A stretch of DNA of 64,000 nucleotides from Syntrophales bacterium (GTDB taxonomy: Bacteria > Desulfobacterota > Syntrophia > Syntrophales > UBA4778), in the NCBI GenBank assembly GCA_963665615.2, contig CAXXQE010000006.1, forward strand, positions 585,165-649,164, in the 5' to 3' direction. Positions within the stretch are counted from its first letter, which is position 1, and each line of letters opens with the position of its first letter. The notes beneath the pieces were generated by a model. That model was not told the origin of the DNA. It worked only from the letters and a program-made list of their open reading frames with translations, and made no database searches. The position numbers were made by a program, and so were the translations under genes. Below, piece by piece: positions 5,151-49,157 of this stretch.

Positions 5151-5171
5151 GTTGAACTCTTCGTCCTGACA

Positions 5172-6327: not shown

Positions 6328-6372
6328 GTTAGACCTCCTCTTAGATGATTATATGATCAATAAATCTGTTGT

Positions 6373-7206: not shown

Positions 7207-7333
7207 AACGACCTCCTTCATAAGGAACAGAGAGGCACATACGTTTCCGCAGCGCCTCTCTGTTATAATGAAACAAACTTTATGATTCCCGACCAAGATT
7301 GGAAGAAAATCTCATATCACGCTAGACTCTTCC

Positions 7334-8152: not shown

Positions 8153-8263
8153 AACTTTCCTCCATGACATCTCTTTATAATGGATATAGAAATGTTAATT
8201 TATTATATCCCTTGTTTTCAACATCAGCAATGTACAAAAGAAGCTATAAAATCCTGCGGTCCG

Positions 8264-18226: not shown

Positions 18227-21200
18227 ATGGCGACTATCCGCGAATTTTTATCAACCTTTTCAGATGATGAAAAATCGATTTTTTTCAGCTTCCGAGGCTT
18301 TCCAAATTATTTTTCAGTGGATTGGTTTTCAGAATTCCCTATTTCGACATTGATTGCTGTCATATCCGAAATTGAAAAACAGCAATGGCTTTCGCCTCAG
18401 CCAGGGAAGCGGGGGCACTATTTATGGACTTCAAAATTCCCCCAGCAAGAATGGAGCGCACAAATATCGCCGGAGGAAATGTCTAGACTGCATCGCAACT
18501 CAGTCGACAGACTTTCGAAAATTCTTCCGAAAGATGATGATATTCGTTTGGCTTTAGCCAAACAATGTATTCTGGCGGGATTACAGGAAGACGATTTGGC
18601 TATTATCACGGATGCGGCCCTTATTGAGGAAAACAAGAATAGAATATCAGACGCTATCCATCTTTATGACACCATCCTGTCTTTTATAGAACAATTAGTC
18701 ATCCGTGACGATGATTTATCGGAGACGACATGGAATATTTTTATTGATTCGATTGAACGTCGGGCGTCTCTCTCACTTTTGCACCCCACGCTGAGAAAAG
18801 CGAAACACTTTCTGAAGATCGCGCTGGAGCATGCCTGCAAGCGCAACAATCAAAAGACCCGCGCCTATATCGAGTTGTTAATCGGACAAAATTATTGGAT
18901 GCATTTTCAGCACAATCGGGCCATTGAGCATTTCAACCGCGGCTTGGAGATCATCAACACCCTTGATGACCGTGAACTTTACAAAAGAGCGCTTAAGATT
19001 CAGGGATTGATTCTCGCCGCCAAGGGCCACTACTTTGAAGCAATTAAGAGGTACGAAAACTCGCTGGGCGAATTGGAATCGCCTGAGAACAATGATTTTT
19101 TTCTCGTTGCGGCCCTAAATTTGTCTCTCTGCTACACGGAGGTCGGAATGCCTCAGAGGGGCCTCGGGATTTCAGAATCAATTCAAAAAAAATGTTCTAG
19201 AAATGACAACCTGCCCTTTATTAGCCTTCGCGCACACGACAGCAGGAATTATTTTTCTACATATTAGAAATCTCAAAGAAAGCAGATCAAATTTTGAAAA
19301 GGCCGCTGAACTTGCCAAATCCGCGCAACTCCCCATGATGGAAGGCCCTGGCGGGGATCGGCCTTGCCAATGTATGCTACTTTGAAGATGATAAGGACCG
19401 TGCCGCCGAGCATTTCAAATCTCTCTGGAAGATCTCAGAATCCGACTGGTATTGTTTTCTGAATTTCAGTCCTCTTTTAGAGGTGTTCTTTGCATTAAGA
19501 CCTAAATTTATCAATGATGGCATAGAGCATTTTTTTGATGTGCTTCGCACCATCAACCCCGAGGAAGTAGATCCTTTTGTTTATTCGGCCACTCAGCGCC
19601 TTTTACTTTTATCATCAGAAAATGAAAGCCCGCTCCAAGACAAAATTAATACCTTGTTAGCGTTAGAAGAAATGATAGAGGCGATGGGCGAGAGCATAGA
19701 AGCGTCCTTAATCAGGGCAGAACTGGCCAGACTATTCATGGTGGAGCGCGATATGCCGAAGGCGCAAGAATATGCATTAAAATCCTGGAAATTTCTCAAC
19801 TACAAAGCCAAGGCTTGTTTTCCTCTCGATTTGTTTCATTTGCTTCCTAAAGACTGCAAGGAATCCGAAAACACGATACTTGAACTGGTCATGACCATGG
19901 GTCGAGCGCTCGGTTATCAGGAAAATCCCGAAGAGACGCTTGTAAATATGATTTCTTTGATCGCCCAAATCGGCGGGGCAGAAAAAACGGGGCTTTTTGT
20001 AAAAGAAAAGAATTCATCAAATCTCAGACTGATTGCCTCCAGAAATCTTTTTCAGGAGGATGTAGAGGATGAGAGTTTTCATGAGAGCATGGAACTGATA
20101 AAATCTGCGGCCAATAACGCCGACAGCCTCCAATTTCTGCATTATGAGTTCGTCGGGAAAAAACGGATACTCCTTTCACCCATTATGCTGTCGCGAAAAA
20201 TTATTGGCGTACTTTATAAGGAGGGTCGTTTTCTCAACGTGGATATTGACATGGAAGACGATAACGAAAAATATATACCCATTCTCAACTCTCAAATTGC
20301 GCTCTCGATACAGCACCTTTTAGCGACTGCCGAAATCATGCAGTTGAACAAGAAATTACTTTCCGAAAATTTATACTATCTGGAGACGATGGACGAAATT
20401 CGCCCGTTCCGGGATATCGTCGGGACCAGCAAAGGGATTATGGAGGTACAGGCGCTTATCCGAAAAGTCGCCCCGACCCAATCAACGGTTTTAGTGCATG
20501 GAGAAACAGGGGTCGGAAAGGAGCTTGTTGCTCGAGCGATCCACCGAGAGAGTCCGAGAAAGGATGGGCCTTTCATTCGTGTTAATTGCGCCGCCCTTCC
20601 GGATACATTAATCGACAGTGAGCTCTTCGGACATGAAAAAGGGGCATTTACAGGCGCCACGCACACCAAGGCAGGTCGCTTTGAGCTCGCGAATAATGGA
20701 ACGATTTTTCTTGATGAGATTTCCGAACTTCCTCCCTCAACGCAAGCAAGATTGCTTAGGATTCTGCAAGAAAAGGAATTCCAGCGAGTAGGCGGCACCA
20801 AAACCCTGAGTTCGAATTTCCGGTTAGTCGCAGCGACGAACAAGGATTTATCCGATGCAGTCGAAAAGGGAAATTTTAGGGCGGATCTCTATTATCGATT
20901 GAATGTCTTTCCGATCAATGTTCCACCTCTCAGAGAGAGAATAGCGGATATCCCTCTACTCGTAGATCACTTTGTCAAATTCCATTGTACCCAAAATTCG
21001 AAAGAGTATCTCGGTATCTCCAATGCAGATATGGAAAATTTCAAGGCCTATTCCTGGCCGGGCAATATTCGTGAACTTTCGAATACAATCGAACTTGCCG
21101 TCATTATGGGAGGGGCAAAGCTTACGTTCCCTAAATTTAAACAGTATGATGATCGTGTTAAGCCAAGTCTCAACGAAAAATTTAATCTCAAAGATGGTGA

Positions 21201-21369
21201 ACGAGCGCGAATTTTGGAGGCTCTTGAAAAAAGTGGCGGAAAAATAGGCGGCAATGATGGGGCGGCTGCACTTGTAGGCCTAAATCGAACAACCCTCATC
21301 CATCGCATGAAAAAGCTGGGAATCAAAATCGAAAATCGGCAGACAATCTCCATTCAGAAGAGTGCCTAA
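18227..21369 (+). pseudogene. Sigma-54-dependent transcriptional activator (TPR-like N-terminal region, GAF-like domain, AAA+ domain, HTH) interrupted by two frameshifts
   Basis: ORFs 18227..19267, 19203..19385 and 19483..21369 lie in three different frames. Joined, they are collinear with the intact paralog 21522..24662 (MATIREFLSTFSDDEKSIFFSF...SVDWFS versus MNAVEDFFSGISEHDKEVFLSL...SIDWFS). The first shift is at or near the A8 run at 19185-19192; the second is near 19335-19350. The C-terminal part has GETGVGKE, GAFTGA and a C-terminal HTH. Confidence 0.75.
20668..20807. repeat. 140-bp block, 139/140 identical to the reverse complement of 22060-22199 (left copy)
   Basis: Checked base by base. 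There is a single mismatch (gagctc versus gaactc). Flanking paralogous sequence is only about 70 percent identical. Confidence 0.9.
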
Positions 21370-21521: not shown

Positions 21522-24500
21522 TTACGAAACAACTTTTTTTACCGAGATATTGTGCCTTTTAATACGAGACGCGAGCGTTGTTCGATTTAGGCCCAAAAGC
21601 GAAGCGGCACCGCTCGGTCCGCCAATTGTGCCATTCGTCAGCCTTAATGCCTTTAATATTTGTGCCTTCTCAAATTCCTTGGAATCCATAAACTCATTAT
21701 GGATGTTGTCGACTTTTTTTCTGTTTACAATATCACTAAATGAAATTTTGTCTTTTCCAAGAATTACGGATCGTTCGATAATGTTGGAAAGCTCCCGAAT
21801 ATTGCCCGGCCAGTTATAGTTGACAAGCTTATCCATCTCAGACTCTGGAATACCATCGAAGTGCTTGTTGAATTGAGAGCAATGTTGATGAAAGAAATGA
21901 ATTGCAAGCGGGGGAATGTCTTCTTTTCTCTCTCGCAAAGGCGGAACGAATATTGGGAAAATGTTAAGTCTGTAGAAAAGATCCGCCCTGAATTTTCCTT
22001 TCGCAACTTCTCTTTCCAGATCCTTGTTTGTTGCTGCAATCAGCCGGAAATCAGAAGAGAGGGTTTTGGTGCCGCCTACTCGCTGGAATTCCTTTTCTTG
22101 CAGAATCCTAAGCAATCTTGCTTGCGTTGAGGGAGGAAGTTCGGAAATCTCATCAAGAAAAATCGTTCCATTATTCGCGAGTTCAAAGCGACCTGCCTTT
22201 GTTTTTATTGCGCCGGTAAAAGCGCCCTTTTCATGACCAAACAATTCACTATCAATCAGGGTATCGGGCAATGCAGCACAATTTACTCGGATAAAGGGCT
22301 TGTCGCATCTTGGACTGTTATTGTGAATGGCTCTGGCAATGAGTTCTTTCCCAACCCCTGTTTCTCCATGGATTAGAACAGTAGACTGTGTCGAAGCAAC
22401 TTTTTGAATAAGCACTTGAACCTGTAAGATTGCACCGCTGATTCCGATAATGTTGCCGAAGGGGCGTAATTCCTTCTGTTCATCTTGGTAATACTGATTT
22501 TCTCGAATCAAATTTTTATTCAACTGCAGGATTTCATCATATGCCTGCGCCCGATCAACGGAAACGGCGATTTGTGTTCCCAATGCAGACAAAAGTTTAT
22601 GCTTTTGAGTGATGTTGTCAAAGGGAAGAAAACGGCTATCCAGATAAAGAACCCCCGTAACTCTTTTATTGAGAACGAGCGGCGTAATGCAAATATGAAG
22701 GGCATCATCGGAATCGTTAAACGAAATTTTCTTTTCGATTACACAACTATCTCGGCTTTCAGCAGTTAATTTTATTTTTTCTGAAACAGCCTTAAACCAT
22801 CGTTCATTCATATGTTCATACGTAAAGTTCCTGGAGGCTGTAATCTGCAATTCGGAAGAAAATTTATCCTTGATAAAAAGAGCTGTACGTTCAGCGCCCA
22901 TCATTCTTGATATTGACGTAATAATACTGCAAAGAAGCTGCTCCAGGTTTTCCTGATTCGATAGTGCTTCTCCAATTTCGATGATGAGTTCAGATAACTT
23001 GTTTTCATCCGTATTTTCCTCCTCATGAATAAAGTGTCTGAGATTGTTTGGAAAAAGATTTTTACAGATGGGCTTTAAAAACTTCCAAGCTGATTGCGCA
23101 TACAACTCCGCCGCTTCCCAATCATTTACTTGCAATGACATTGAAGCAATATCAGTTCTAAGTTTTGCCAATTCTATCGTTTCACCAATTTGACAAATGG
23201 AGGTTTCGATAGCCTTGAATTCTTCCAGCTTATCCTTGACCTGCAGATTCGGTTCTAAATATTTCAGGTGTTGCAACTTAATGAGGCCATGCAAAAAAGG
23301 ATTCAGCTGTTCTGCTCGAAGTCGATCCACATGATTGAGAAATAACTCGAGTTCTTTTGTATAAACATTTTGCGCATACAAAATATATCCAACATCAAAA
23401 ACAGGATATAGATTAAAAAAATGCAACCACTTTGATTTATGGATTTTGGCGAGGATTCTAAAGTGGTCGGCGGCGGCGGTATAATTTCCCTTCAAGCATT
23501 CGATTTTGGCCAGCCCAAGACTTGCAATCACCTCCTGCCTAGGAAGTCTTTCTTGAACCGAAAGGTTTAGTCCCTTTTCGAAATAGGTGCGGCTATTCTC
23601 CAGTTGCATGATTTCAAGGAGAATGCTTCCCATGGTCACCAGGGCATAGCTGGCCATAGGCCAATGTTTTTGTTTCTCTGTCTTGCTTAATATCGTTTCT
23701 GCTATTCCCAAACCACGTTGCGGCATCCCGATCTCAGCATATGATTGGGCAAGGTGAAGAGCCGTCACATAGGTGAGATCATCAGCTTCGAAATCCTCCG
23801 TTTTACCCAGAGATTCTTCATAGATTCGAATGGATTCATGAACCTGCCCTTTGAGCCAGAGTGAAAGACCTTGCAGTTGAAACCCCTTTCGATAGAGCAC
23901 CTGATCGTTAATCGTCTGGATCATTGCCCAGCCCCCATCGAAGTGGTCTGTTGAGGCTTTGTATTCGAGCTCCGTCCAGTAGTAAAGCCCCATGCAAAGA
24001 TGGAGAAACGCCTCATGTGCCTTCTCTTCGAGTTCCGCCGCAATAACCAGTCCTTTTGACAGCCAACGATAAATTTTTTCTTTATTAGGATCAAAAATGG
24101 TCGAATACGTTACGACCCGGGCTAATGCTTTTAAAAAAGTATAGAGCATTTCTTTGGGCGGTTTTGTCTCGGTTGTCTCCAGATAATTGTCAATAAACGA
24201 TAAGAGCGTATGAAGCAGGTTAATTGCCGATGAAATCCTATGCTGTTTTCTTTCAGTAACAGCCGCTCGGTAAATAATATTGATGTGAGATGGTTCCAGG
24301 CCGGCGGACAGACATTGGTGAGCGATGCTGAGAATCCCTTGATCATTCATGGGCAGATGTTCTTGAAGCATAGATACGGAATTTCGATAATAGGGCATCA
24401 TTATTTCTGGAGGAATTGCTTTCAAAAATGCGGAACGAGGAAAGTCTTTTGCCCATCGATAAAAACCGGGGTCATCCGAAATAGATGCGACCCATTTCTT

Positions 24501-24662
24501 TTGACTGAGAGCGCTAACCATCGTAAACAATTGTGACAAGAGAAAATTTGGATTACCGGAAAACCAATCAATTGAAAAATATTCTTTGAAAGCCAGGAGA
24601 CTTAAAAAGACTTCTTTATCATGTTCACTTATGCCTGAAAAAAAATCCTCAACGGCATTCAT
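21522..24662 (-). CDS. Sigma-54-dependent transcriptional activator, 1046 aa (TPR-like N-terminal region, GAF-like domain, AAA+ domain, Fis-type HTH)
   Basis: GETGVGKE Walker A, ELFGHEKGAFTGA sigma-54 contact motif, and ...GGPSGAASLLGLNRTTLASRIKRH HTH. Divergent from the 25168 operon and its -24/-12 promoter. Confidence 0.9.
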   Translation of the reverse strand: MNAVEDFFSGISEHDKEVFLSLLAFKEYFSIDWFSGNPNFLLSQLFTMVSALSQKKWVASISDDPGFYRWAKDFPRSAFLKAIPPEIMMPYYRNSVSMLQEHLPMNDQGILSIAHQCLSAGLEPSHINIIYRAAVTERKQHRISSAINLLHTLLSFIDNYLETTETKPPKEMLYTFLKALARVVTYSTIFDPNKEKIYRWLSKGLVIAAELEEKAHEAFLHLCMGLYYWTELEYKASTDHFDGGWAMIQTINDQVLYRKGFQLQGLSLWLKGQVHESIRIYEESLGKTEDFEADDLTYVTALHLAQSYAEIGMPQRGLGIAETILSKTEKQKHWPMASYALVTMGSILLEIMQLENSRTYFEKGLNLSVQERLPRQEVIASLGLAKIECLKGNYTAAADHFRILAKIHKSKWLHFFNLYPVFDVGYILYAQNVYTKELELFLNHVDRLRAEQLNPFLHGLIKLQHLKYLEPNLQVKDKLEEFKAIETSICQIGETIELAKLRTDIASMSLQVNDWEAAELYAQSAWKFLKPICKNLFPNNLRHFIHEEENTDENKLSELIIEIGEALSNQENLEQLLCSIITSISRMMGAERTALFIKDKFSSELQITASRNFTYEHMNERWFKAVSEKIKLTAESRDSCVIEKKISFNDSDDALHICITPLVLNKRVTGVLYLDSRFLPFDNITQKHKLLSALGTQIAVSVDRAQAYDEILQLNKNLIRENQYYQDEQKELRPFGNIIGISGAILQVQVLIQKVASTQSTVLIHGETGVGKELIARAIHNNSPRCDKPFIRVNCAALPDTLIDSELFGHEKGAFTGAIKTKAGRFELANNGTIFLDEISELPPSTQARLLRILQEKEFQRVGGTKTLSSDFRLIAATNKDLEREVAKGKFRADLFYRLNIFPIFVPPLRERKEDIPPLAIHFFHQHCSQFNKHFDGIPESEMDKLVNYNWPGNIRELSNIIERSVILGKDKISFSDIVNRKKVDNIHNEFMDSKEFEKAQILKALRLTNGTIGGPSGAASLLGLNRTTLASRIKRHNISVKKVVS
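22060..22199. repeat. 140-bp block (right copy, inverted) matching 20668-20807
   Basis: See the left copy. It covers the AAA+ segment ...KAGRFELANNGTIFLDEISELPPSTQARLLRILQEKEFQRVGGTKT in both genes. Confidence 0.9.
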
Positions 24663-24828: not shown

Positions 24829-24844
24829 TGGCATAAGATATGCA
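24829..24844 (+). promoter_or_regulatory. Sigma-54 (-24/-12) promoter candidate P1 for the 25168..30135 operon
   Basis: TGGCATaagatATGCA, with GG and GC in exact consensus register. It is divergent from the intact activator gene. The first start codon is about 325 nt downstream. Confidence 0.55.
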
Positions 24845-25096: not shown

Positions 25097-25135
25097 CTTT
25101 TGAATGGCCTCTCAATTTGAGAGGCCATTCAAAAG
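25097..25135. repeat. Perfect 39-bp palindrome (19-bp arms, 1-nt centre) in the operon leader
   Basis: CTTTTGAATGGCCTCTCAA-t-TTGAGAGGCCATTCAAAAG. It ends 32 nt before the GTG start at 25168 and lies just upstream of the GGAGAGGAGAAG Shine-Dalgarno. Confidence 0.85.
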
Positions 25136-25167: not shown

Positions 25168-26313
25168 GTGCAAAACAAATCCAGATTGGAAGCGCTTAAA
25201 GAACTCACATATCCAGCAAAAACCCTCTTTAATTCCCATTTAGAGGACTGGAGAAACAAAGGGGGGAAGGTTGTAGGATATTTTTGTTCCTTTGTGCCGC
25301 CGGAAATCATTTCCGCCGCCGGTCTTCTTCCCGTGAGAATGAGAGCTACCGGGAATAAAGGAACAGAACTATCGGATGCATATATGGGAAGCATAAGTTG
25401 TAGTTTTTCGAGAAACTGTCTCAATATGGCCCTGAAAGGAGACTATGACTTTTTAGATGGGATTATTTTTGGCAACACCTGTGATCAAGTCCGGCGGCTA
25501 TATGACATCTGGGAACGAAAGATGAGGCCGTGTATTAAAATATTGAGTATCCCTCGAAAGACGGGCAACGACCAAATCCAATGGTATCGTGACGAACTGG
25601 CTTCTTTAAGACTAGCACTCGGCAATCATTTCGGCGTTGAGATTAGCGATAAGTGCCTAAGAAAACAAATATGGATATATAATGAGACACGTCATCTGCA
25701 AAAGATGATTTTCCATCTTCTGAAAGCTAAGACCCCGCCCCTTAAAGGATCCGAAGTCTTATCTATTTTGGTTGCAGGAACGGCTATGCCAATTGAGCGT
25801 TACAATATTCTTTTGAAGAACTATCTTGATACCGTTACCAACGTCGAGGACACGGCCGATGCCAGACCGAGATTGATGATTATAGGTAGTATTTTAGATG
25901 ATCCAGATTATGTGAAAGTCATTGAGGATGTTGGTGCTCATGTCGTTGCTGGATATCATTGCTTCGCAAAGGCCGCCTGGAAAGATGCCATTGATGGTTC
26001 CGGAGACCCTTTGCAGGCTCTTGCGCATAGCTATATTGCGGATCTGCCATACTGCCCGCGGATGTTTGGCGTCTTTCCGAAGACGGCCGAGTATCTAAAA
26101 ACAATGATCAAAGAATTTAAAGTGGACGGTGTAATAGGCGAACGCATGCAATTCTGTGATTCGTCCGGTTTTCAAATGACCATGCTTGAGGATGAATTTA
26201 AGAAAGAGAATATCCCCTTTTTGGTTTTGGACAGGGAATACGTATTGGGCGGTATCGGTCAAATGAAGACGAGGGTGCAGGCGTTTCTTGAGACGTTGGA
26301 AGGAGGTAATTAG
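25168..26313 (+). CDS. 2-hydroxyacyl-CoA dehydratase / benzoyl-CoA reductase family (HGD-D) subunit 1
   Basis: 381 aa. Family-typical Cys motifs GYFCSFVPPEI, GNTCDQV and MQFCDSSG. GTG start with GGAGAGGAGAAG upstream. Confidence 0.85.
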   Translation: MQNKSRLEALKELTYPAKTLFNSHLEDWRNKGGKVVGYFCSFVPPEIISAAGLLPVRMRATGNKGTELSDAYMGSISCSFSRNCLNMALKGDYDFLDGIIFGNTCDQVRRLYDIWERKMRPCIKILSIPRKTGNDQIQWYRDELASLRLALGNHFGVEISDKCLRKQIWIYNETRHLQKMIFHLLKAKTPPLKGSEVLSILVAGTAMPIERYNILLKNYLDTVTNVEDTADARPRLMIIGSILDDPDYVKVIEDVGAHVVAGYHCFAKAAWKDAIDGSGDPLQALAHSYIADLPYCPRMFGVFPKTAEYLKTMIKEFKVDGVIGERMQFCDSSGFQMTMLEDEFKKENIPFLVLDREYVLGGIGQMKTRVQAFLETLEGGN

Positions 26314-27602
26314 TGGTGTTACAAAGCGCTAAAACGATGGAACATCTGAACGGGTTTCTTAAGGAGTATACCGCTATGGCCAGACACATGGCGAAGAGTT
26401 CAGACGAGGAACTTCAGTTGCAGGTCCCCATGCTCCAGCTTCTTATAGATGAGACTGAATTGCTCATTCAGTGTGCTGAAAAAGAGAAACCAATCGTAAT
26501 GAGCTGGTACAATCTCGCACCAGAGATATTTTCCGCCATGGATATCGTCTGGTATGATTTATCTCAGCTCATCGCGCCAACGTCACGATCAGTCGTAAAG
26601 AAATGGGCCGATGCCGATCAACTCTCACTCCCAAAAGACATTTGCAGTTTACATCGGTTAATGATGTCTGTGATTAAAAATGAGGAAGTTCCGGTTCCAA
26701 CGGCAATGATAGCCCTGCTCTATCCCTGCGACGGCGTTTCACCCTTTCACGATGCCGTGCTTCAGCGATGGCGCAATGTGCCTTATTTCGCCATAGATCC
26801 CCCCTATGAGGATGACGAGCGCTCAATCGCCTATGCCGCTGGAGAATTCAGGCATATGATCTCATTTCTCGAAGAACAAACAGGAATAAAAATGGATTTC
26901 CGCAGATTGAAACAAGCCGTGGAGGAATCCAATGCTCAATATCGGTTATTTATGGAGTACAACGAACTGAAACGGGCAATTCCCTGTCCCCATCAGTCTT
27001 TCTTCGGTACGGTATTAGGCCCAATAACCCAATGTTTTTATCTGTCAGCCGGAAAGCCGCGGGGCACGGCGCTTTTGAAAAGTTTTGTTGAGCACGCAGA
27101 AAAGCGCGTAAAAGAGAAAAAAGGGTCTTCATTCAAAGAAAGAATCCGGGTTTATTGGGCTGACTTGCCGCCCAATGCCATCATGGGAGAACTGAGACCC
27201 TGGCTGCAGGAAGAATGGGGCGCAAACGTGGTCATGGACTATGTGAGTGATTGTCCATATGAACTCATTGATACATCGAGTGAAGAAACCATTCTGCATG
27301 GACTGGCGGATAGATCTCTGAATCATTCCTGGATGATCAGACAGGCGCGGGGGCGTATAGATACGATCATTGATGACTATATACGGATCGTTAATGATTA
27401 CAAAATCGACTGTGTCTTCATTCCAGGTCACATGGGGCACAAAGATGGATCAGCTGCGCTGGGGCTTCTCAAAGAAGTATGTCGTGAGTTGGGGGTCCCG
27501 TCCCTGTATATTGGCATGGACCTTTGGGATCCGAGATATACCCCTATAGACGAAATGAAGGACAAGATTTCGACATTCTTCTCTACAATGGAATTGGGAT
27601 AA
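26313..27602 (+). CDS. HGD-D family subunit 2 (divergent; lacks Cys at two of the three expected ligand positions by eye)
   Basis: 429 aa. The GTG start overlaps the TAG stop of subunit 1 by 1 nt, with GGAGG upstream. It aligns with subunit 1: SWYNLAPEIF versus GYFCSFVPPEI, LYPCDGV versus GNTCDQV, and PGHMGHKDGS versus RMQFCDSSG. Confidence 0.8.
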   Translation: MVLQSAKTMEHLNGFLKEYTAMARHMAKSSDEELQLQVPMLQLLIDETELLIQCAEKEKPIVMSWYNLAPEIFSAMDIVWYDLSQLIAPTSRSVVKKWADADQLSLPKDICSLHRLMMSVIKNEEVPVPTAMIALLYPCDGVSPFHDAVLQRWRNVPYFAIDPPYEDDERSIAYAAGEFRHMISFLEEQTGIKMDFRRLKQAVEESNAQYRLFMEYNELKRAIPCPHQSFFGTVLGPITQCFYLSAGKPRGTALLKSFVEHAEKRVKEKKGSSFKERIRVYWADLPPNAIMGELRPWLQEEWGANVVMDYVSDCPYELIDTSSEETILHGLADRSLNHSWMIRQARGRIDTIIDDYIRIVNDYKIDCVFIPGHMGHKDGSAALGLLKEVCRELGVPSLYIGMDLWDPRYTPIDEMKDKISTFFSTMELG

Positions 27603-27651: not shown

Positions 27652-28464
27652 ATGAATGTCAGCATGAATGGTTATTATTTTGGAGGCTGTGATGTAGGAT
27701 CCACTACAGGGAAAGCTGTGATTATGAAAGATGGAAATATTATCTCCCATTCAATTGTCAGATCCACCACGAAACCAGAGTTGACGGCACACATAGCGAC
27801 GGATGATGCAATCACGAAGGCGGGGTTAGGTTCGATAGATGATCTGACGTTCATTGTTGGGACAGGATATGGTCGCCTCAAGATCCCTTTTGCTAATGAG
27901 AATATTTCCGAGATAACGTGTCACGCCCGGGGTGCGAAGTGGCTGTCCCCTTCCGTTGGCACTGTGATCGATATCGGGGGGCAAGATTGTAAAGTCATGT
28001 CATTGGACGAGAAGGGCAAGGTTAAGGAATTTCTCATGAATGATAAGTGCGCTTCTGGAACCGGGCGCTTCTTCGAAGCTATGACACGGGTTCTTTCTTG
28101 CGATCTGGATGCGTTCTCATTACTCTCGCTCAATTCAAAAAAACCGGCAACCATTACTTCTCAGTGCAGTGTGTTTGCTGAGTCTGAAGTCATAACCCTG
28201 ATTAACGAAGGGGTCGATTTAGGTGAAATCTGTGCAGGCATTAATGAATCAATTGCGATTAGGTTAATTGCGATGGTGAGAAGAATAGGTTTCAATGGAG
28301 ATTTAACTGTAACGGGCGGTTGCGCAAAGAATGCGGGATTGATAGATGCGCTGGAGAAGCGGTTTGAAATAAGCATAAAAAGACTATCAGTGGATACCCA
28401 AATAGTTGGGGCAATAGGCGCATCGTTGATCGCCGCGGAAAAATGGCAAAAGAACAACAGCTGA
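27652..28464 (+). CDS. BcrAD/BadFG-type ATPase: activase of HGD/BCR-family enzymes (HgdC-like)
   Basis: GGCDVGSTTGKAV phosphate-1 motif, IDIGGQDCKV, and the two cluster-bridging Cys contexts NDKCASGTGRFFE and SQCSVFAESEV. AAGGAG upstream. Confidence 0.9.
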   Translation: MNVSMNGYYFGGCDVGSTTGKAVIMKDGNIISHSIVRSTTKPELTAHIATDDAITKAGLGSIDDLTFIVGTGYGRLKIPFANENISEITCHARGAKWLSPSVGTVIDIGGQDCKVMSLDEKGKVKEFLMNDKCASGTGRFFEAMTRVLSCDLDAFSLLSLNSKKPATITSQCSVFAESEVITLINEGVDLGEICAGINESIAIRLIAMVRRIGFNGDLTVTGGCAKNAGLIDALEKRFEISIKRLSVDTQIVGAIGASLIAAEKWQKNNS

Positions 28465-28503: not shown

Positions 28504-29301
28504 ATGGCTGTCTTTGATGTGTATGTGGCAAAGCTAACTCAGTATATCGAGAATATGCGGGAGTGCGGCAGGCAAGTTCGAGAAATCAATTGTCCTTCCA
28601 CAAGCACTGAACTGCTGGAGGACCTTCCTGTTCGAATAGGCGAGCAACCTTGCCATGGGATCATCACTCGAGAAGATACTTATGTTGAAATGGGGAGCCA
28701 AGATGCAGGCTCCTGTTCTTTTCTTTTGTGGACGAAAAATCCATCTTTAATTTCTGGCGGGAAAATTACCGTAATTGGTCCAGATATCCTGGATTCACCG
28801 GGAGCCTGTTTGCCGTTTGGTCAGATTCTGATGATAGGGGGAGGAGACCTTTGCAATGAGGATCATGGTGTTCTAGAGCGAAAACAGTATATTTCAGACC
28901 AGATCGAAGGATATATGGCCAAGATCTTATCTCATCGTATCTGGGCCAGGGTGAGCAAGGATGCCGCATCAAAGGGTTTTAGCTTTGAAACCTTGGGAAG
29001 AGGGTTGATGGCCCTGTATAAATCAGGGCTCCCCAAGGTCGAGGATGTGGAGATTGTTTTTGTCACCTCAAGTAGAGATGATTTGAGACCCTTGCAGAGA
29101 ATGTCAAAAGAAGTTCGCAAAATAACAAAAAAGATCATGCGAGAAAACTGGAGTGCCAAAGGCTTTGACATAGAGTGCATTCTGGATTGCAGCCGCTGCC
29201 AAAATGCAACTGTATGCGATGAAATTAGAGAAGTCGTCTCAATCAGCAAACAACAAAGCGATGTTGTTATTAAGCAGTCCATAATAGAAAGGACGGGATG
29301 A
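28504..29301 (+). CDS. Protein resembling the central domain of acetyl-CoA synthase (AcsB/CdhC) without the N-terminal CODH-docking domain or the Ni-binding C-terminal part
   Basis: By-eye matches to remembered AcsB/CdhC segments: DTYVEMGS, GKITVIGPDI, VLERKQYISDQIEGYM, RIWARVSKDAASKGFSFETLG and VEIVFVTS. It ends shortly after LDCSRCQNATVC. The assignment relies on memory of ACS sequences, not on a search. Confidence 0.6.
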   Translation: MAVFDVYVAKLTQYIENMRECGRQVREINCPSTSTELLEDLPVRIGEQPCHGIITREDTYVEMGSQDAGSCSFLLWTKNPSLISGGKITVIGPDILDSPGACLPFGQILMIGGGDLCNEDHGVLERKQYISDQIEGYMAKILSHRIWARVSKDAASKGFSFETLGRGLMALYKSGLPKVEDVEIVFVTSSRDDLRPLQRMSKEVRKITKKIMRENWSAKGFDIECILDCSRCQNATVCDEIREVVSISKQQSDVVIKQSIIERTG

Positions 29302-29367: not shown

Positions 29368-30135
29368 ATGTCCGAACCTGAAGGGAAATTAATAGCCATA
29401 TGCGGTAAGGGAGGTACAGGAAAGACTGCTTTAGCCGCTATGATGGCCAAAGTTATTCTGGACAGTGGTCAGAGGAGAAAACTATTGCTCATTGATGCCG
29501 ATCCAGCCACTGGTCTGGCTATTGCTCTTGGAGTAAAAATTAAACGCACCGTCGGGCAGATTCGAGAAAAAATTATCAGAACTGCTAAAGCAGGAGACAA
29601 AGGAGAAAAAAATCGGATAGCGGATAGCCTCGATTATATGGTCTTTGAGGCACTTAACGAGGTAAACGGCTTTACCCTTCTGGCCATGGGACGTACCGAA
29701 ACACTCGGTTGCTTTTGTCCTGTCAACGAGCTGTTGAGAGATATCTTGGGAAAGCTCTCCAGAAGTTTCGATATAATTATTATTGATTGTGAAGCCGGTC
29801 TGGAACAAATTAACAGACAAGTTGTGCATGCTGTGCATACACTTATTGTCGTCAGCGATCCTTCAATGAGAGGTTTGCAGACCGTATCCCTGATAAAGAA
29901 TATGGTGGAAACAGACAAAGTGATACGCTGCGAGAAAATGGGTTTGGTTTTCAATAGGCTGCAAGGCGAGGAGAATCAAATGAAACATTTCTCAGGGATG
30001 GAAATACTTGGATATGTTCCTCAAGACGAAAACATTATATATCACGATTCATCTGGAAAACCTTTATTGACGCTCCCAGATTCTTCACCTGCCCTCATTG
30101 AGGTTCGCAAAATTACAGAAAAGTGTTTGAACTGA
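29368..30135 (+). CDS. CooC/AcsF-type P-loop NTPase, copy 2
   Basis: ICGKGGTGKTA deviant Walker A, LIDADPATGL, and CxC motif LGCFCPVNELLR. GGAAGGAG upstream. Confidence 0.85.
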   Translation: MSEPEGKLIAICGKGGTGKTALAAMMAKVILDSGQRRKLLLIDADPATGLAIALGVKIKRTVGQIREKIIRTAKAGDKGEKNRIADSLDYMVFEALNEVNGFTLLAMGRTETLGCFCPVNELLRDILGKLSRSFDIIIIDCEAGLEQINRQVVHAVHTLIVVSDPSMRGLQTVSLIKNMVETDKVIRCEKMGLVFNRLQGEENQMKHFSGMEILGYVPQDENIIYHDSSGKPLLTLPDSSPALIEVRKITEKCLN

Positions 30136-30797: not shown

Positions 30798-31664
30798 CTA
30801 TTTTGTTTTTTTGTCAAAGTTATATTCTTCAATCGTCGGTAGACCGCCAACACGCGATGTCAGGCTCTTCAGAAAATCATCCACTGCTTCTTTGAGATTT
30901 TCGATCCGCATTGTTCTCGCCCCGACCGGGCACTCTCGAACGCAGACACCGCAGCCACTGCACTGTTCCTGATTGGTTTTGGATTTCCCATCCTCGATGG
31001 TGATGCAGGACCCAAAACAGTCGGGAATACACTGACCGCATCCGATACACTTTTCCTCATCAACAAATACCTGGAGCCCCTTGAGTCGATGGAAAATCTG
31101 CCTGTCCGGGCCCTTCGGCATCTGCCTTCTGAGCTTGATGGTACCGCAGCAGCACGTGCAGCACAGACAAACCGTGAAGAACGGCTGGGAAATGTCCCAA
31201 ATCTGAAGATCGGCTTCGAAGTGACCGACCATCGGGATTAAGCCAGCATCAACGCATTTGCGCACGTGAGCGATGGTTTCTTCCACTGTGGCATGCTTGA
31301 CATTGTCGTCGTTATGCTCAGCGGTGGAGGTGCCGATATGGATACAACCATATTCATTGTAAGGGTATTTCTTGCACTTCTTGCCTTCCCGGCAGTTGCA
31401 GACATTGCAGATCACTCTGTGGGGCGACCGTCTGATAATTTCTTCCAGGATGACCAATGGCAAGGGAGTGCTGACAGAATTAATCTCGACATTCATTGGA
31501 ATATGATACAGGCTGAAAAGATCAGGCTGGGCCAGCGCCTCCGCCCGTTCTTTCGCTGCTTCACCCAACACGGGCACATCGAGGTCATCAAACAACTTCC
31601 AGGATACGGCCATCAGTTCAAGTTCCTTCGGCGTTCTTTTACTTTTTCTTTTCGGTTCATCCAT
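30798..31664 (-). CDS. Uncharacterised Cys-rich Fe-S protein, paralog B
   Basis: 288 aa. Closest to paralog A: PLPLVILEEIIRRSPHRVICNVCNCREGKKC...YGCIHIG, TVCLCCTCCC, CIGCGQCIPDC, CSGCGVCVRECP, and tail ...SRVGG as in A. Confidence 0.8.
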   Translation of the reverse strand: MDEPKRKSKRTPKELELMAVSWKLFDDLDVPVLGEAAKERAEALAQPDLFSLYHIPMNVEINSVSTPLPLVILEEIIRRSPHRVICNVCNCREGKKCKKYPYNEYGCIHIGTSTAEHNDDNVKHATVEETIAHVRKCVDAGLIPMVGHFEADLQIWDISQPFFTVCLCCTCCCGTIKLRRQMPKGPDRQIFHRLKGLQVFVDEEKCIGCGQCIPDCFGSCITIEDGKSKTNQEQCSGCGVCVRECPVGARTMRIENLKEAVDDFLKSLTSRVGGLPTIEEYNFDKKTK

Positions 31665-44505: not shown

Positions 44506-46059
44506 TCACTCCTTACCCGTCACTATCTGTTGTTTCTTCCCCGTATGATCCTTCCCCAGATAATAGTTCTGCCAGGAGGAGGTTTGATAGAGATCCCAGT
44601 TACAGGGGGAGACTGAACTCGCTTCGAGTTGTGACTCCTGGCCGCGCGCTTTCAACCTGGCATAGGCTCTGACATAGATACAGCGCCGCTTCCCGGGGTG
44701 GACTTCGCACCAGCCTTGGAAGCTCCCGCCGCAGGCGCCGTTGCGCTGGTTTTTTGGGCACTGCGACATGGGGCAGAGATAGGCCGTATCGATGAGCGCG
44801 CAGTCCCCGCAGTCCTTGCAGTCAAAGAGAACGACCTTGGTGAGATGTTCGAGTTTGTGGAAGGGCCGATCCAGCTTTGTTCCGGCGACGCGGCGATAGA
44901 ATCCCCGCATGAGATTGTAGAAGCGCTTGCCCGGTTCAAACATCAGCCAGTGAAGAAAAAGCGACAAACTGTAATTGATTCCGATAGGCACATCGGGAAC
45001 GCTTGACGACCGCTTTGTCGGAATATCCTGGTTGAGCCCCGTTTCGGGATCGCACTCGTAGTAATAGAATCCACCGGAGATCGGATCGTCGAAATAACGC
45101 ACCAGTTCGCGCCACCGAGGAATCAACGCCTCGCCCTGTTCGATGATCTCCAACACCTGTTCGTAGCGGACGTTGTGACCGCCGATGTGGACGCCGTCGT
45201 AGCCCATGCCCTTGAGGATCGCATAGAGACGGGCGGCGCGCAGAATTCGAGCCGCCACACCTTTATCCGGCGCCGTTCGTTCCCGGTCGATTTCTGCGAG
45301 GAGTTTGTCCGTTACGACGGAGCCGGGCAGTTCGTTGCGGTTCATCATCTGCGCTGCGCCGTAGGGCAGGATGTAGATGTTGCCGACGAGCGGCACGTTC
45401 AAATCGTTCTGTTTCATGAAAAGCAGCACTTCATGAAACTTCCGGGCGTCGTAGCCCAACTGCGTCACAATGAACTGCGCGCCGGCGGCGATCTTCTTTT
45501 TGAGCTTGTAGTACTGCGCCAGTTGCTCGGCCTCGGTCGCCTTGAAAGACGATACGGCCGCTCCTGCGAAGAAGTCGCTCGGCAGGTGCCGCACGGTTCC
45601 CTTGCCTGCCGCATACTCCAGCCCGCGGTTCATGTCCGTGATGAGTTGTAAAGTGTGGATGGGATCGAGATCGAAGACGGGCGCTGGACGGCCCTGATAG
45701 CCGCCGACGGGGTAATCGCCGGTCATGACGAGGAGGTTTCGTACACCGGCGCGATCCAGCGCGTAGAGCTGACTTTCGATCTGGCTGCGGTTCTTGTCCT
45801 TGCCGGTGAAATGAACGAGCGGCTCGATGCCGAGCTTCAGAATCTCGCCGCCCATGAAGTCGGCGGACATAGCGGGACTGCCGCCGGGATTGTCCGTTAC
45901 CGTCAGCGCGGCAATCCGACCGCCAGCCGCAGCCTGCCCCGCCAGCGTCAGAGCCTTTTCCTGCGCCTCTTCCCGCGCGCCACGCCCAGGTACGAGTTCC
46001 CACGTCACAGGGAATCGGTTCGGATCGAGCAGAGCCTCTTTAAATCGGTTCTCAGTCAC
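44506..46059 (-). CDS. metF: Methylenetetrahydrofolate reductase fused to a C-terminal MetV-like Cys-rich domain
   Basis: The N-terminal about 300 aa is a MetF TIM barrel (...TVTDNPGG, LLVMTGD, IVTQLGYD). The C-terminal part has VVLFDCKDCGDCALIDTAYLCPMSQCPKNQRNGACGG, typical of the MTHFR C-terminal/MetV domain. GTG start 13 nt after the folD stop. Confidence 0.85.
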   Translation of the reverse strand: MTENRFKEALLDPNRFPVTWELVPGRGAREEAQEKALTLAGQAAAGGRIAALTVTDNPGGSPAMSADFMGGEILKLGIEPLVHFTGKDKNRSQIESQLYALDRAGVRNLLVMTGDYPVGGYQGRPAPVFDLDPIHTLQLITDMNRGLEYAAGKGTVRHLPSDFFAGAAVSSFKATEAEQLAQYYKLKKKIAAGAQFIVTQLGYDARKFHEVLLFMKQNDLNVPLVGNIYILPYGAAQMMNRNELPGSVVTDKLLAEIDRERTAPDKGVAARILRAARLYAILKGMGYDGVHIGGHNVRYEQVLEIIEQGEALIPRWRELVRYFDDPISGGFYYYECDPETGLNQDIPTKRSSSVPDVPIGINYSLSLFLHWLMFEPGKRFYNLMRGFYRRVAGTKLDRPFHKLEHLTKVVLFDCKDCGDCALIDTAYLCPMSQCPKNQRNGACGGSFQGWCEVHPGKRRCIYVRAYARLKARGQESQLEASSVSPCNWDLYQTSSWQNYYLGKDHTGKKQQIVTGKE

Positions 46060-46072
46060 GTTTCCCCGCGCT

Positions 46073-46960: not shown

Positions 46961-46986
46961 CATCTTCCTCCAGAGCATATTTCCGA

Positions 46987-47062
46987 GTCATTGCGGGTGA
47001 AGGAAGCAATCTCGTCCACTTTCTTCCTGAGATTGCTTCGTCACTACGTTCCTCGCAATGAC
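46987..47062. repeat. Nested inverted repeats in the fhs-folD intergenic region
   Basis: Outer arms GTCATTGCG (46987-46995) and CGCAATGAC (47054-47062). Inner arms GAAGCAATCTC (47003-47013) and GAGATTGCTTC (47029-47039). Confidence 0.8.
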
Positions 47063-47143
47063 AGGTTCACACATATTTTAATGGCCCGTCGCTCAGCGAC
47101 TGCGACGTCAGCCGCTGCCTGTCTTATCACAAATTGTCGATTT

Positions 47144-48847: not shown

Positions 48848-49157
48848 AAAATACTCCCGAATGATTTTATACGCCCCGCCGACCAGTGGCCGGCGCCCTT
48901 GCGCGTCACGAGTGCGCGATGGGATCGGGTTCGCCCGCTTGCTACACGAGCAAAGAGCCGATTTATTAAAGCATCCCCTGTCACACCTTGTCAAAGGGAT
49001 TTGCGCCAAAGGTTGTTGACCGAGACACCGCCCGATCGGCAGGACCTCAGGCTGAGGCACAGTCGGCCGACGTGTCGTTTAATTGTCTTGACATAAACCC
49101 TTGTCTATCGGATAGACTGATATCTAATACGCTTGAACACAAGGCCATAAGGATTCT

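Follow-up and report, generated by a model that had tools for sequence, protein, structure and literature searches.

A stand-alone homolog of the acetyl-CoA synthase A2 domain, encoded with a CooC-like ATPase in a gene cassette of the benzoyl-CoA reductase/2-hydroxyacyl-CoA dehydratase type

Described ACS forms, radical enzymes and the locus

Acetyl-CoA synthase (ACS; AcsB/CdhC, EC 2.3.1.169) is considered specific to the Wood-Ljungdahl pathway, with the CooC/AcsF ATPases serving as its dedicated nickel chaperones. The cubane of its A-cluster is held by four cysteines with the spacing C-x2-C-x8-C-x9-C (Cys506, Cys509, Cys518 and Cys528 in Moorella), the Ni-Ni site, with a proximal and a distal Ni, is formed at Cys595-Gly-Cys597, and CoA is bound by the A2 domain. 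The only function of the CooC/AcsF family known to us is the ATP-dependent insertion of Ni into the clusters of CODH and ACS. ACS folds without its N-terminal domain in PDB 3git, an engineered truncated ACS without A1, and in the natural A2-A3 CdhC; both keep A3 and the full A-cluster. A recent phylogeny of ACS presents several natural domain variants, an A2-only form not being mentioned among them (PMC13370988).

The 64 kb stretch of DNA analysed here (the window) encodes a short CdhC-like protein, mini-ACS, within a cassette of five genes (Table 1), the others being a BzdN-like [8Fe-9S] subunit (HGDa), a BzdO/HadB-like putative catalytic subunit (HGDb), an HgdC-like activase and a CooC-like ATPase. 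The cassette resembles BzdNOPQ, HadBC-HadI and DCCP in that HGDa has the six Cys of BzdN, HGDb matches BzdO and HadB, and the activase is of the HgdC/HadI kind, but it adds two obligatory genes, those of mini-ACS and the CooC-like ATPase; to our knowledge, the canonical BCR, HAD and DCCP enzymes need neither. As for ACS, mini-ACS has the same fold as its A2 domain, shares with it the motifs D-x-[FY]-V-E-[LM]-G, GPD[IL], [EQ]-G-x-[WM] and W-x-R-[IV]-S-K-D-A-x-x-K-G-F, and is likewise paired with a CooC/AcsF-type ATPase. Unlike ACS, mini-ACS is devoid of A1, A3, Cys528 and Cys595-Gly-Cys597, its second and third Cys are separated by a loop with 3 residues fewer, it has an extra upstream Cys, it belongs to a separate clade and it never lies beside CODH or the corrinoid Fe-S protein (CFeSP) in the loci examined. 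Whereas 3git and the A2-A3 CdhC conserve A3, mini-ACS is reduced to A2 and a 14-residue Cys motif. We propose, with a probability of about one half, that mini-ACS is a functional auxiliary Fe-S subunit of an ATP-dependent radical-enzyme cassette of the BCR/HAD type, to which it would have been recruited together with the CooC/AcsF-type ATPase.

Table 1. Position of the cassette genes and associated features in the window
Feature	Position	Strand	Remarks
Candidate sigma-54 -24/-12 element	24829..24843	+	TGGCATAAGATATGC; GG-N10-GC; pattern match, tentative
Perfect 19-bp inverted repeat, 1-nt centre	25097..25135	.	Read from the sequence; 33 nt 5' of the HGDa GTG
HGDa, HGD-D family subunit, BzdN-like	25168..26313	+	381 aa; GTG start; Pfam HGD-D 3e-84
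HGDb, HGD-D family, divergent BzdO/HadB-like putative catalytic subunit	26313..27602	+	429 aa; Pfam HGD-D 4e-46
Activase ATPase, BcrAD/BadFG-type, HgdC/HadI-like	27652..28464	+	270 aa; Pfam BcrAD_BadFG 6e-52
mini-ACS (short CdhC-like protein)	28504..29301	+	265 aa; ATG start
ACS A2-like domain of mini-ACS	28606..29163	+	aa ~35-220; PDB alignments, AF2, Foldseek
Four-Cys motif C225-x3-C229-x2-C232-x5-C238	29176..29217	+	Predicted [4Fe-4S] site
CooC/AcsF-like P-loop ATPase	29368..30135	+	255 aa; deviant Walker A GKGGTGKT; C115-F-C117

A short protein related to the middle domain of ACS

The ORF of mini-ACS is a real gene, with a ribosome-binding site (GAGGAA) 8 nt 5' of its start codon, and its similarity to the middle (A2) domain of ACS is far above chance. 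The Pfam CdhC profile PF03598 aligns its positions 11-152 of 155 with aa 51-190 (E=1.1e-20; 74.6 bits, cutoff 24), phmmer against PDB retrieves CdhC 9c0s_E (7e-18) and Moorella ACS (9.5e-17), and the profile of the mini-ACS family reaches 2.5e-21 against PDB. In the PDB alignments residues 35-210 correspond to 314-490 of Moorella ACS, identity with ACS being 21-33%, and an EGYM motif at 135-138 falls within the A2-like domain. The AF2 model (pLDDT 83.9, pTM 0.78) is confident for residues 1-220 and of low confidence for 225-265. Foldseek significantly matched it to ACS/CdhC chains only, the best being Moorella ACS 1oao_C (E=9.4e-14, rmsd 2.0 A over 183 columns) and the next unrelated match having an E-value of 0.3. 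Profile, phmmer and structure searches therefore bear out the preliminary description of this protein as a stand-alone homolog of the ACS central domain. It had also been described as stopping before the Ni-Ni site and without the N-terminal domain; in agreement, Pfam/NCBIfam profiles and the alignment revealed no A1, A3 (PF19436) or Cys-Gly-Cys in mini-ACS. The protein ends 27 aa past C238, close to the 25 aa estimated previously, and a 66-nt spacer separates it from the CooC-like gene. A tblastn search of the whole window with 70 ACS fragments gave no further ACS-like segment, the alignments stopping at 29205, so that the earlier statement that no continuous ACS frame precedes the CooC-like gene also holds.

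A protein of about one third of an ACS, which scores far under the NCBIfam ACS cutoffs (85 against 372 bits for NF003379, 72 against 356 for TIGR00316 and 73 against 800 for NF040764), could be taken for the decaying remnant of a truncated or frameshifted ACS gene that has lost its function. This explanation is effectively refuted by hundreds of homologs of the same length that carry invariant motifs in several phyla, by conserved synteny and by the lack of downstream ACS-like sequence in any frame, which rule out a frameshift or pseudogene, and also by the intact start codon and ribosome-binding site. Our search found 339 homologs. The best 120, with identities of 49-76%, are all 229-284 aa long, and 118 fall within 250-285 aa. 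At 50% identity there are at least 150 clusters with E<1e-30, all of them short (235-290 aa). The phylogeny proposed with the preliminary description places these short proteins in a clade apart from bacterial ACS and archaeal CdhC, and the clade is more divergent than ACS, with an internal identity of 30-39% against 55%. Mini-ACS is a full-length member of an old and diverse family. The initial wording of a "fragment" with a "partial cluster motif" does not fit a family of at least 150 clusters with a clade of its own and four invariant Cys in the subfamily.

The cassette occurs mostly in uncultured Dehalococcoidia, and further in Desulfobacterota, Binatia, Myxococcota and archaeal-looking contigs. 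Its mini-ACS genes are at present annotated as "CO dehydrogenase/acetyl-CoA synthase beta subunit" or as "carbon monoxide dehydrogenase". Among open-access papers and bioRxiv we found no publication in which a short CdhC is associated with CooC and HGD-D genes and, judged from this literature, mini-ACS would represent a large, undescribed family of putative Fe-S proteins.

Cysteine motif and predicted CoA-binding surface

C225, C229, C232 and C238 are invariant in sets of 118 and 40 family members, and this conservation predicts that the motif binds a [4Fe-4S] cluster. A MAFFT alignment equates C229, C232 and C238 with Cys506, Cys509 and Cys518 of ACS, Cys232 thus being the equivalent of the bridging Cys509, and the conserved Trp precedes the CxxC by similar distances, with 82 aa to its first Cys in mini-ACS and 79 aa in ACS. 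The C-x2-C-x8-C spacing first read by eye has to be corrected to C-x2-C-x5-C, which implies a deletion of 3 residues with respect to the CxxCQSFAPxHxC of ACS. Of the A-cluster ligands considered in the preliminary description, the first three are therefore present and Cys528 has no counterpart; its remark that the fourth cubane Cys is absent is right for Cys528 but overlooked the invariant C225, located 3 residues upstream of the other Cys, which could replace it. In this sense, mini-ACS may be envisaged as an ACS A2 domain followed by a compact Cys motif that would have its origin in the first portion of the cubane site of the A-cluster and most likely carries one [4Fe-4S] cluster. The first spacer of the motif ranges from x3 to x5 across the family (x3, x4 and x5 in 7, 38 and 61 representatives respectively), and about 40 of 150 representatives have only three Cys, so that the ligand set may be incomplete or shared between mini-ACS and a partner, or the site may be something other than a plain cubane. 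Cys-Gly-Cys is absent from mini-ACS and from every family member inspected. A radical SAM site (a fixed CX3CX2C in a partial TIM barrel), whose spacing mini-ACS matches by chance, was ruled out given the variable spacer and the A2 fold; the radical SAM Pfam profile has no match in mini-ACS.

The segment most conserved between mini-ACS and ACS is that of W147 and R149. W147-x-R149 is invariant in the family and corresponds to Moorella W427/R429 in a mixed alignment, and W-x-R-[IVL] is kept in 34/34 aligned ACS and short sequences. Trp405 of Clostridium autoethanogenum ACS stacks the adenine of acetyl-CoA (bioRxiv 10.1101/2024.08.05.606187). We mapped the CoA residues onto mini-ACS through sequence offsets and coordinates; with an offset of about 22 between the C. 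autoethanogenum and Moorella numbering, that Trp405 equals Moorella Trp427 and W147. On this mapping, mini-ACS keeps the predicted adenine-stacking CoA surface of ACS. The same offset rules out M138, at the position of Moorella Trp418, as the stacking counterpart; archaeal CdhC likewise has a Met at this position. The equivalents of Arg405 and His408, which are implicated in acetyl transfer in ACS, are not conserved in the alignment of the mini-ACS family, and this argues against an ACS-like chemistry.

One could think that mini-ACS only handles CoA, binding CoA or acyl-CoA in order to present, gate or sense the substrate, while the Cys motif would be structural (e.g. a Zn site) or redox-sensing. 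The prominence of W147/R149 and its equivalence to the adenine-stacking Trp are what such a module should display, and the characterised relatives of the HGD-type partner enzyme all act on CoA thioesters (PMC11971306). BzdNO, however, binds its own CoA moiety (PMC11971306), the four invariant cubane-derived Cys favour an Fe-S role, as does one natural protein in which a short CdhC is fused to a ferredoxin domain of the 2x[4Fe-4S] type, and the CooC-like ATPase would be left without a function. We consider this alternative very unlikely.

The five-gene cassette and the possible role of mini-ACS

The best PDB match of HGDa is BzdN (8s02_B, 1.1e-40), whose cluster Cys are 36/73/100/263/293/327 (PMC11971306). 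All six align with HGDa C40/78/105/265/296/330, whose conservation across 62 orthologs is 98-100%, with no exception at five of the positions, and HGDa is accordingly predicted to bind a double-cubane [8Fe-9S] cluster. The profile of HGDb orthologs matches BzdO (4.8e-17), HadB (1.6e-15) and DCCP (1.6e-14). C111 and C139 of HGDb are invariant and align with BzdO Cys95 and Cys128, while in place of the third Cys ligand, BzdO Cys380, an invariant PGHMGHKD is found, with C390 (98% conserved) 12 residues on, in a region where the alignment is of low confidence. PGHMGHKD or GH(P/H)ACK occurs at this cluster-ligand position in both subfamilies. The activase scores 237 bits with TIGR00241 (acyl-CoA dehydratase activase; cutoff 125), the Cys pair of its bridging cluster (C133 and C172) is invariant and, being encoded by a single gene, it is presumably a homodimer. 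The cassette subfamily thus joins a single activase gene, as in HAD, to a BzdN-like double-cubane subunit, as in BCR. The CooC-like ATPase has its best PDB match in CooC1 (3kje, 1.1e-14) with the CXC motifs aligned, and its CXC and P-loop are invariant in 66 orthologs. It shares with CooC1/AcsF the deviant Walker A, the CXC and a gene located beside that of an ACS-derived protein, as acsF is beside acsB, but its putative client mini-ACS has no Ni-Ni site. The conservation of the [8Fe-9S] Cys, of the activase Cys and of the CXC and P-loop makes the partners of mini-ACS look functional.

Synteny was studied in 78 non-redundant loci, mostly from Dehalococcoidia metagenome-assembled genomes (MAGs). 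Of the 58 with enough upstream DNA, all encode HGDb, 57 encode HGDa and 55 the activase. The CooC-like gene lies directly 3' of mini-ACS in 56 of 64 loci and is truly absent from only 3; the gap between both genes has a median of 39 nt, with several overlaps. There are two gene orders with the same membership, and the recurrent neighbours at 81 loci include no sixth conserved gene, no conserved nickel transporter or Ni uptake gene, and neither CODH nor CFeSP. CODH (AcsA/CdhA) and CFeSP are also absent among the window ORFs of at least 150 aa, which agrees with the non-CODH operon noted at the outset. A Cys-rich Fer4 protein (30798-31664) was discarded as a cassette member, its homolog being found in 0/81 loci. 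The distant three-Cys subfamily keeps the association with HGD-D and CooC genes, including one archaeal-looking contig. Taken together, conservation and synteny show that this ACS domain was recruited to another system, outside CODH/ACS, as had been suspected; scaffold, cluster carrier and docking module are possible roles for it.

A mirror-tree analysis, in which shared phylogeny confounds an already weak signal, gave partial correlations of mini-ACS with the activase of 0.40 [0.11-0.51], with HGDa of 0.33 [0.23-0.48] and with HGDb of -0.15, the positive control HGDa-HGDb reaching 0.58. These values and the ferredoxin fusion are hints of electron transfer. In the role that we propose for mini-ACS as an auxiliary Fe-S subunit, mini-ACS and the CooC/AcsF-type ATPase would have entered as a pair into a self-contained five-gene cassette encoding an ATP-dependent radical enzyme of the class I benzoyl-CoA reductase/2-hydroxyacyl-CoA dehydratase type. 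There, mini-ACS may sit on the electron-input side, touching the activase and/or the [8Fe-9S] subunit and perhaps relaying electrons, while the CooC-like ATPase would consume ATP in filling or building a metal site of the complex. The ATPase may target the cluster of mini-ACS, much as AcsF acts on ACS, or else the unusual His-containing site of HGDb.

In a different explanation, the CooC-like ATPase would place Ni, or some other metal, beside the cubane of mini-ACS by way of the bridging Cys232. The simplified Ni-[4Fe-4S] site so formed would act in tandem with the radical enzyme, and its metal would catalyse thioester or C-C chemistry on a CoA ester bound to the A2-like domain. Ni insertion is the one activity known for CooC/AcsF and CooC1 is the closest structure to the neighbour ATPase, both genes are strictly adjacent and often overlap, the bridging Cys and the CoA-adenine Trp are kept together, and the joint recruitment of an ACS piece and its maturase is simplest if both still interact. 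Nevertheless, mini-ACS offers neither Cys-Gly-Cys nor any other conserved thiolate pair for Ni, the three-Cys subfamily has no Cys to spare, the catalytic Arg and His of ACS and nearby Ni uptake genes are not conserved, and CooC co-varies with HGDb (0.30) about as much as with mini-ACS (0.23 [-0.02, 0.58], not clearly above zero). We therefore judge such a minimal A-cluster unlikely. Less likely still is that a stripped-down A-cluster, i.e. a Cys232-bridged cubane plus Ni or another metal on a CoA-binding domain, carries out with the ATP-driven ketyl-radical enzyme a novel organometallic chemistry of acyl-CoA; this would be, for example, a reversible decarbonylation/carbonylation or an acyl transfer, foreign to both parent systems. 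If true, uncultured Dehalococcoidia would commonly possess this activity, which would also occur in archaea.

It is also conceivable that mini-ACS and the CooC-like ATPase are assembly factors only, that is, a dedicated maturation pair outside the mature enzyme. As a cluster carrier and an Mrp/NifH-like ATPase, they would build or insert one of the clusters of the HGD-type enzyme, either the [8Fe-9S] or the catalytic one. Cluster carriers typically coordinate their cluster through three Cys or in a labile manner, as the three-Cys members would, and SIMIBI ATPases related to CooC (Mrp/Nbp35, NifH) act in Fe-S delivery and P-cluster maturation. The unusual PGHMGHKD or GH(P/H)ACK at the cluster-ligand position of HGDb and the co-variation of CooC with HGDb fit this possibility. 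On the other hand, canonical BzdNO, HadBC and DCCP are not known to rely on such factors for cluster assembly, and a simple carrier has no need for the strongly conserved A2-like domain and CoA-type Trp. The short or overlapping junctions, measured for mini-ACS and the CooC-like gene only, do not distinguish subunits from assembly factors. On balance we find this explanation unlikely.

In the cassette, a domain derived from ACS and an ATPase of the CooC type belong as obligatory members to another enzyme system, one that is very widespread and of the ATP-dependent BCR/HAD type. If this is confirmed, the A2-only form would be the fourth domain architecture of the ACS superfamily, CooC-type ATPases would gain a client outside CODH/ACS, ketyl-radical enzymes with additional metallo-subunits would be defined as a new subclass, and a systematic annotation error would be corrected. 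Labelling these proteins as a CODH/ACS subunit inflates Wood-Ljungdahl predictions in MAGs, and their neighbours will probably be interpreted as benzoyl-CoA reductase genes and hence as signs of aromatic degradation.

The window contains a second CooC-like paralog (35% identical) in another context. The 260-aa ORF adjoining it (5172-5957) was rejected as a second mini-ACS (hhalign probability 0.2). LptD, sigma-54 regulators and PEP-CTERM hint at a diderm host, probably one resembling Desulfobacterota. Rfam had no matches in the window, and thus no RNA element or Ni/Co riboswitch was detected there. The candidate sigma-54 element lies about 325 nt 5' of the first cassette gene; matches to its pattern are not enriched across the window, and it is plausible only because sigma-54 activators are encoded at 21522-24662 (- strand, divergent) and 19483-21369 (+ strand). 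Between this element and HGDa, the inverted repeat is a possible operator or RNA hairpin.

ACS homology and cysteine motif of mini-ACS

The similarity of the short CdhC-like protein mini-ACS to acetyl-CoA synthase (ACS) is statistically solid. PF03598 (CdhC), the Pfam family of the middle ACS domain (A2), matches residues 51-190 (E=1.1e-20), and phmmer against PDB sequences retrieved Methanosarcina CdhC (7e-18) and Moorella ACS (9.5e-17), aligning residues 35-210 with ACS 314-490; with a 40-member family profile the similarity to ACS reached up to 2.5e-21. The AF2 model (pLDDT 83.9, pTM 0.78) is confident over residues 1-220 and matches only ACS/CdhC chains of the PDB (1oao_C, E=9.4e-14, rmsd 2.0 A, 183 columns), the top non-ACS match being at E=0.3. 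The N-terminal domain (A1), the C-terminal domain (A3, PF19436) and the Cys-Gly-Cys are missing, the stop codon falls 27 residues past the final motif Cys, and tblastn with 70 ACS fragments found no further ACS-like sequence anywhere in the 64 kb. Given this significant homology and these absences, the preliminary description of an ACS middle-domain homolog without the Ni-Ni site holds. NCBIfam ACS models gave partial matches only, all far under their cutoffs. Mini-ACS is a member of PF03598 but not an ACS, since, of seven defining features of ACS that were tested, it lacks five.

Four cysteines, C225, C229, C232 and C238, are invariant in 118 close relatives (C-x3-C-x2-C-x5-C, then a conserved Asp), and the CxxC lies 82 residues after a conserved Trp, compared with 79 in ACS. 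A mixed MAFFT alignment pairs C229 with ACS Cys506, C232 with Cys509 (the bridge to Ni) and, past a deletion of 3 residues, C238 with Cys518; where ACS has CxxCQSFAPxHxC, the short form reads CxxCxxxxxC. A minimal Ni-[4Fe-4S] A-cluster, with the Cys509 equivalent kept and the Cys-Gly-Cys lost, is unlikely. ACS Cys528 has no counterpart, and the mini-ACS subfamily has instead an extra Cys 3-5 residues upstream of the CxxC. In this sense, the partial motif described initially was right about the missing fourth cubane Cys of ACS and overlooked the additional invariant Cys upstream. The four-Cys form (spacers x3, x4 or x5) is found in about 106 of 150 family representatives, while about 40 have only C-x2-C-x5-C (three-Cys subfamily). 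Because the four invariant Cys are inherited from the cubane site, a [4Fe-4S] cluster is the most likely predicted cofactor; the AF2 model is unconfident over this region.

The short family and its predicted CoA-binding face

A search of 5.8 billion proteins retrieved 339 homologs, the best 120 of which are all 229-284 aa long (118 at 250-285 aa), with 49-76% identity and PF03598 as sole domain. When a profile was run exhaustively against 1.84 billion cluster representatives, 721 matches came up (465 under 1e-10 and 150 under 1e-30), and every protein among the top 150 is short, either 235-310 aa long or a piece truncated by its contig. A neighbour-joining tree of the common region, distance-based, midpoint-rooted and with few ACS sequences sampled, places the short proteins in a clade of their own, divided into two sub-clades, apart from a clade that unites bacterial ACS fragments with archaeal CdhC. 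Members of the two short sub-clades share on average 36% and 39% identity among themselves, against 55% among ACS sequences, and the mean drops to 21% when ACS is compared with the short proteins. Judged by this own clade and its high internal divergence, the short form would be a deep, diverse sister lineage and not a recent truncation. The term fragment, used initially, does not suit a family of this size, uniform shortness and separate clade, and a gene remnant is hardly worth considering. A recent ACS phylogeny describes A1-A3 forms, A2-A3 forms and several variants, and no A2-only form (PMC13370988). Databases label the short proteins as 'CO dehydrogenase/acetyl-CoA synthase beta subunit', 'carbon monoxide dehydrogenase' or 'hypothetical'.

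In the C. autoethanogenum CODH/ACS complex acetyl-CoA is bound mainly by A2, where Trp405 stacks the adenine, a Lys/Arg patch faces the diphosphate, and Arg383 and His386 have proposed acetyl-transfer roles (bioRxiv 10.1101/2024.08.05.606187). Using an offset of about 22 residues between C. autoethanogenum and Moorella numbering, taken from alignment coordinates, Trp405, Arg383 and His386 map by sequence only to Moorella Trp427, Arg405 and His408, and to W147 and positions 125/126 and 128/129 of mini-ACS. W147 and R149 (W-x-R-[IVL]-S) are invariant across every aligned ACS and short protein, and the equivalents of the acetyl-transfer Arg and His are not conserved in the short proteins; the family thus appears to keep the nucleotide-binding face of A2 and not the acetyl-transfer residues. 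As a reading of this face, a CoA-handling or regulatory module is quite improbable.

The five-gene cassette and the proposed role

Mini-ACS homologs on unrelated contigs have the same five-gene surroundings as in the window (table below). With one genome scanned per GTDB species, 72 loci were obtained, every one from a metagenome-assembled genome, as are all the related loci; the majority belong to Dehalococcoidia/Chloroflexota and others are labelled Deltaproteobacteria/Thermodesulfobacteriota, Binatia, Myxococcales, Spirochaetales, Acidobacteria, Bacteroidales and Gammaproteobacteria. For synteny we used 78 non-redundant loci, limiting upstream counts to the 58 whose upstream DNA spans 4 kb or more: HGDb precedes mini-ACS in 58, HGDa in 57 and the activase in 55. 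The CooC-like gene starts directly downstream in 56 of 64 loci (median gap 39 nt, several overlaps); the other eight comprise two partial matches with a CooC-like gene, one truncated copy, two lying slightly further on, and three without it in the fetched DNA. Of the two gene orders, a-b-activase-miniACS-CooC was seen at 32 loci and activase-a-b-miniACS-CooC at 20. Clustering of all neighbouring ORFs revealed no sixth recurrent gene (next commonest family in at most 12 loci), and no recurrent ferredoxin, CoA-transferase or nickel transporter. In locus L070 (7844-8278) the CooC-like ORF is truncated to 144 aa, which may be a frameshift or an assembly error; L050, L052 and L060, a related group, lack the CooC-like gene in the fetched DNA, L050 also lacking the activase.

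Features of the window, in window coordinates
Feature	Position	Strand	Remarks
HdrD-like CCG/Fer4 protein	780-1958	-	around second CooC-like gene
SDR	2397-3212	-	around second CooC-like gene
Cys-rich Fer4 proteins	3492-4361, 6373-7296, 7334-8170	-	around second CooC-like gene
Second CooC-like ATPase	4386-5150	-	
260-aa ORF	5172-5957	-	no Pfam match; second CooC-like cluster
Sigma-54 enhancer-binding protein	19483-21369	+	GAF domain
Sigma-54 enhancer-binding protein	21522-24662	-	1046 aa, TPR + GAF domains; divergent
Candidate GG-N10-GC element (TGGCATAAGATATGC)	24829-24843		intergenic
Perfect 19-bp inverted repeat, 1-nt centre (CTTTTGAATGGCCTCTCAA T TTGAGAGGCCATTCAAAAG)	25097-25135		33 nt before GTG of first cassette gene
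HGD-D 'a' (HGDa)	25168-26313	+	first in co-directional block
HGD-D 'b' (HGDb)	26313-27602	+	second in block
PGHMGHKD motif	27427-27450		HGDb aa 371-378; low-confidence alignment to BzdO Cys380 region
BcrAD/BadFG activase	27652-28464	+	third in block
Mini-ACS	28504-29301	+	fourth in block; 265 aa, ATG start, ribosome-binding site GAGGAA
CooC-like ATPase	29368-30135	+	fifth in block
MTHFR with its C-terminal domain	44506-46059	-	
FolD	46073-46978	-	
Formate-THF ligase	47144-49060	-	
Glutamate dehydrogenase	54381-55793	-	
NrpR-type regulator (HTH_12 + NRD1_2)	55753-56817	-	archaeal nitrogen repressor family
LptD	62277-63986		

In the distant three-Cys subfamily the association recurs, here with 3-4 HGD-D paralogs and a pair of activase-type ATPases. 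Since this subfamily, including a contig with archaeal-type genes, keeps it, mini-ACS, the CooC-like ATPase and the HGD-type enzyme are joined by an old and robust link. The three-Cys cassettes are larger (L082, GCA_030605385.1, 1272-8490; L083, 1-8466), their two BcrAD/BadFG ATPases are BCR-like and differ from each other, and in both loci the short CdhC stop overlaps the CooC-like start by 4 nt; the L082 neighbours NAC and PUA/TGT look archaeal.

HGDa is BzdN-like by its best PDB match (8s02_B, 1.1e-40) and conserves, as a site predicted by alignment, all six [8Fe-9S] double-cubane Cys of BzdN (ligand list in PMC11971306). HGDb is divergent, its ortholog profile matching BzdO (4.8e-17), HadB (1.6e-15) and DCCP (1.6e-14) in the PDB, with C111 and C139 as the counterparts of BzdO Cys95 and Cys128. 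At the position of BzdO Cys380 (NRGC380EG) the low-confidence alignment places, instead, the PGHMGHKD invariant in the HGDb family, with C390 twelve residues on, and CGH(P/H)ACKQ in the HGD-D paralogs of L082 and L083. This replacement of the third BzdO ligand suggests an unusual active-site cluster, possibly His-ligated, specific to the enzymes accompanied by mini-ACS and CooC. The activase exceeds the TIGR00241 cutoff and keeps two cluster Cys; the CooC-like protein has CooC1 as best PDB match (1.1e-14, CXC motif aligned), and its CXC and deviant Walker A motifs are invariant. Neither the review on double-cubane proteins nor the paper on the BzdNO structure (PMC11971306) mentions a CooC or ACS-like partner.

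The data show an ACS A2 fold with four invariant Cys that is almost always encoded together with a complete BCR/HAD-type enzyme and a CooC-type ATPase. The simplest history would be the joint recruitment of an ACS piece and its cognate maturase, which suggests that mini-ACS and the CooC-like ATPase still interact; that both form a pure assembly-factor pair is somewhat unlikely. Two weak lines would put mini-ACS on the side where electrons enter the enzyme. One representative (P0197, 308 aa), the only such case among 150, is a natural fusion in which a short CdhC of the three-Cys type (FDCTSCDYQEVCDD) carries a 2x[4Fe-4S] ferredoxin domain at its C-terminus. The other is a mirror-tree analysis of 51 loci, in which mini-ACS has partial correlations (bootstrap intervals) of 0.40 (0.11-0.51) for the activase, 0.33 (0.23-0.48) for HGDa and 0.23 (-0.02-0.58) for CooC, and of -0.15 for HGDb; CooC versus HGDb gave 0.30 (0.08-0.55) and the HGDa-HGDb control 0.58. 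On the presumed joint recruitment, the ferredoxin fusion and the mirror-tree signal, we favour, with a probability of about 0.5, that mini-ACS is an auxiliary [4Fe-4S] subunit or adaptor with a CoA-type binding face and that the CooC-like ATPase matures a metal site in the complex. Within the open-access papers and bioRxiv preprints covered, the ACS-superfamily architecture and the five-component subclass of BCR/HAD-type enzymes are new here.

Regulatory elements and other genes of the window

The cassette may be sigma-54-dependent, because two sigma-54 enhancer-binding proteins are encoded upstream and a candidate GG-N10-GC element lies in the intergenic region. For the perfect inverted repeat, a role as operator or as leader hairpin is conceivable.

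A second cluster (780-8170, minus strand) holds another CooC-like ATPase, 35% identical to the cassette copy and keeping the CXC as GCYC. Its 260-aa ORF was ruled out as mini-ACS-like (hhalign probability 0.2). Three paralogs of about 280 aa (3492-4361, 7334-8170 and 30798-31664, all on the minus strand; mutual identity 31-38%) combine a Cys-rich N-terminal part (CxCRE...GC, CLCCxCCC) with a C-terminal 2x[4Fe-4S] domain, and two of them adjoin one CooC-like gene each; in the 81 other loci the cassette is not accompanied by any homolog. Inspection of window ORFs of 150 aa or longer turned up no CODH, corrinoid protein or full ACS; Wood-Ljungdahl/C1-folate methyl-branch genes are grouped at 44506-49060 (minus strand). 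Judging from LptD, the host genome is apparently diderm bacterial, and it carries the NrpR-type gene directly upstream of, and overlapping, the glutamate dehydrogenase gene.
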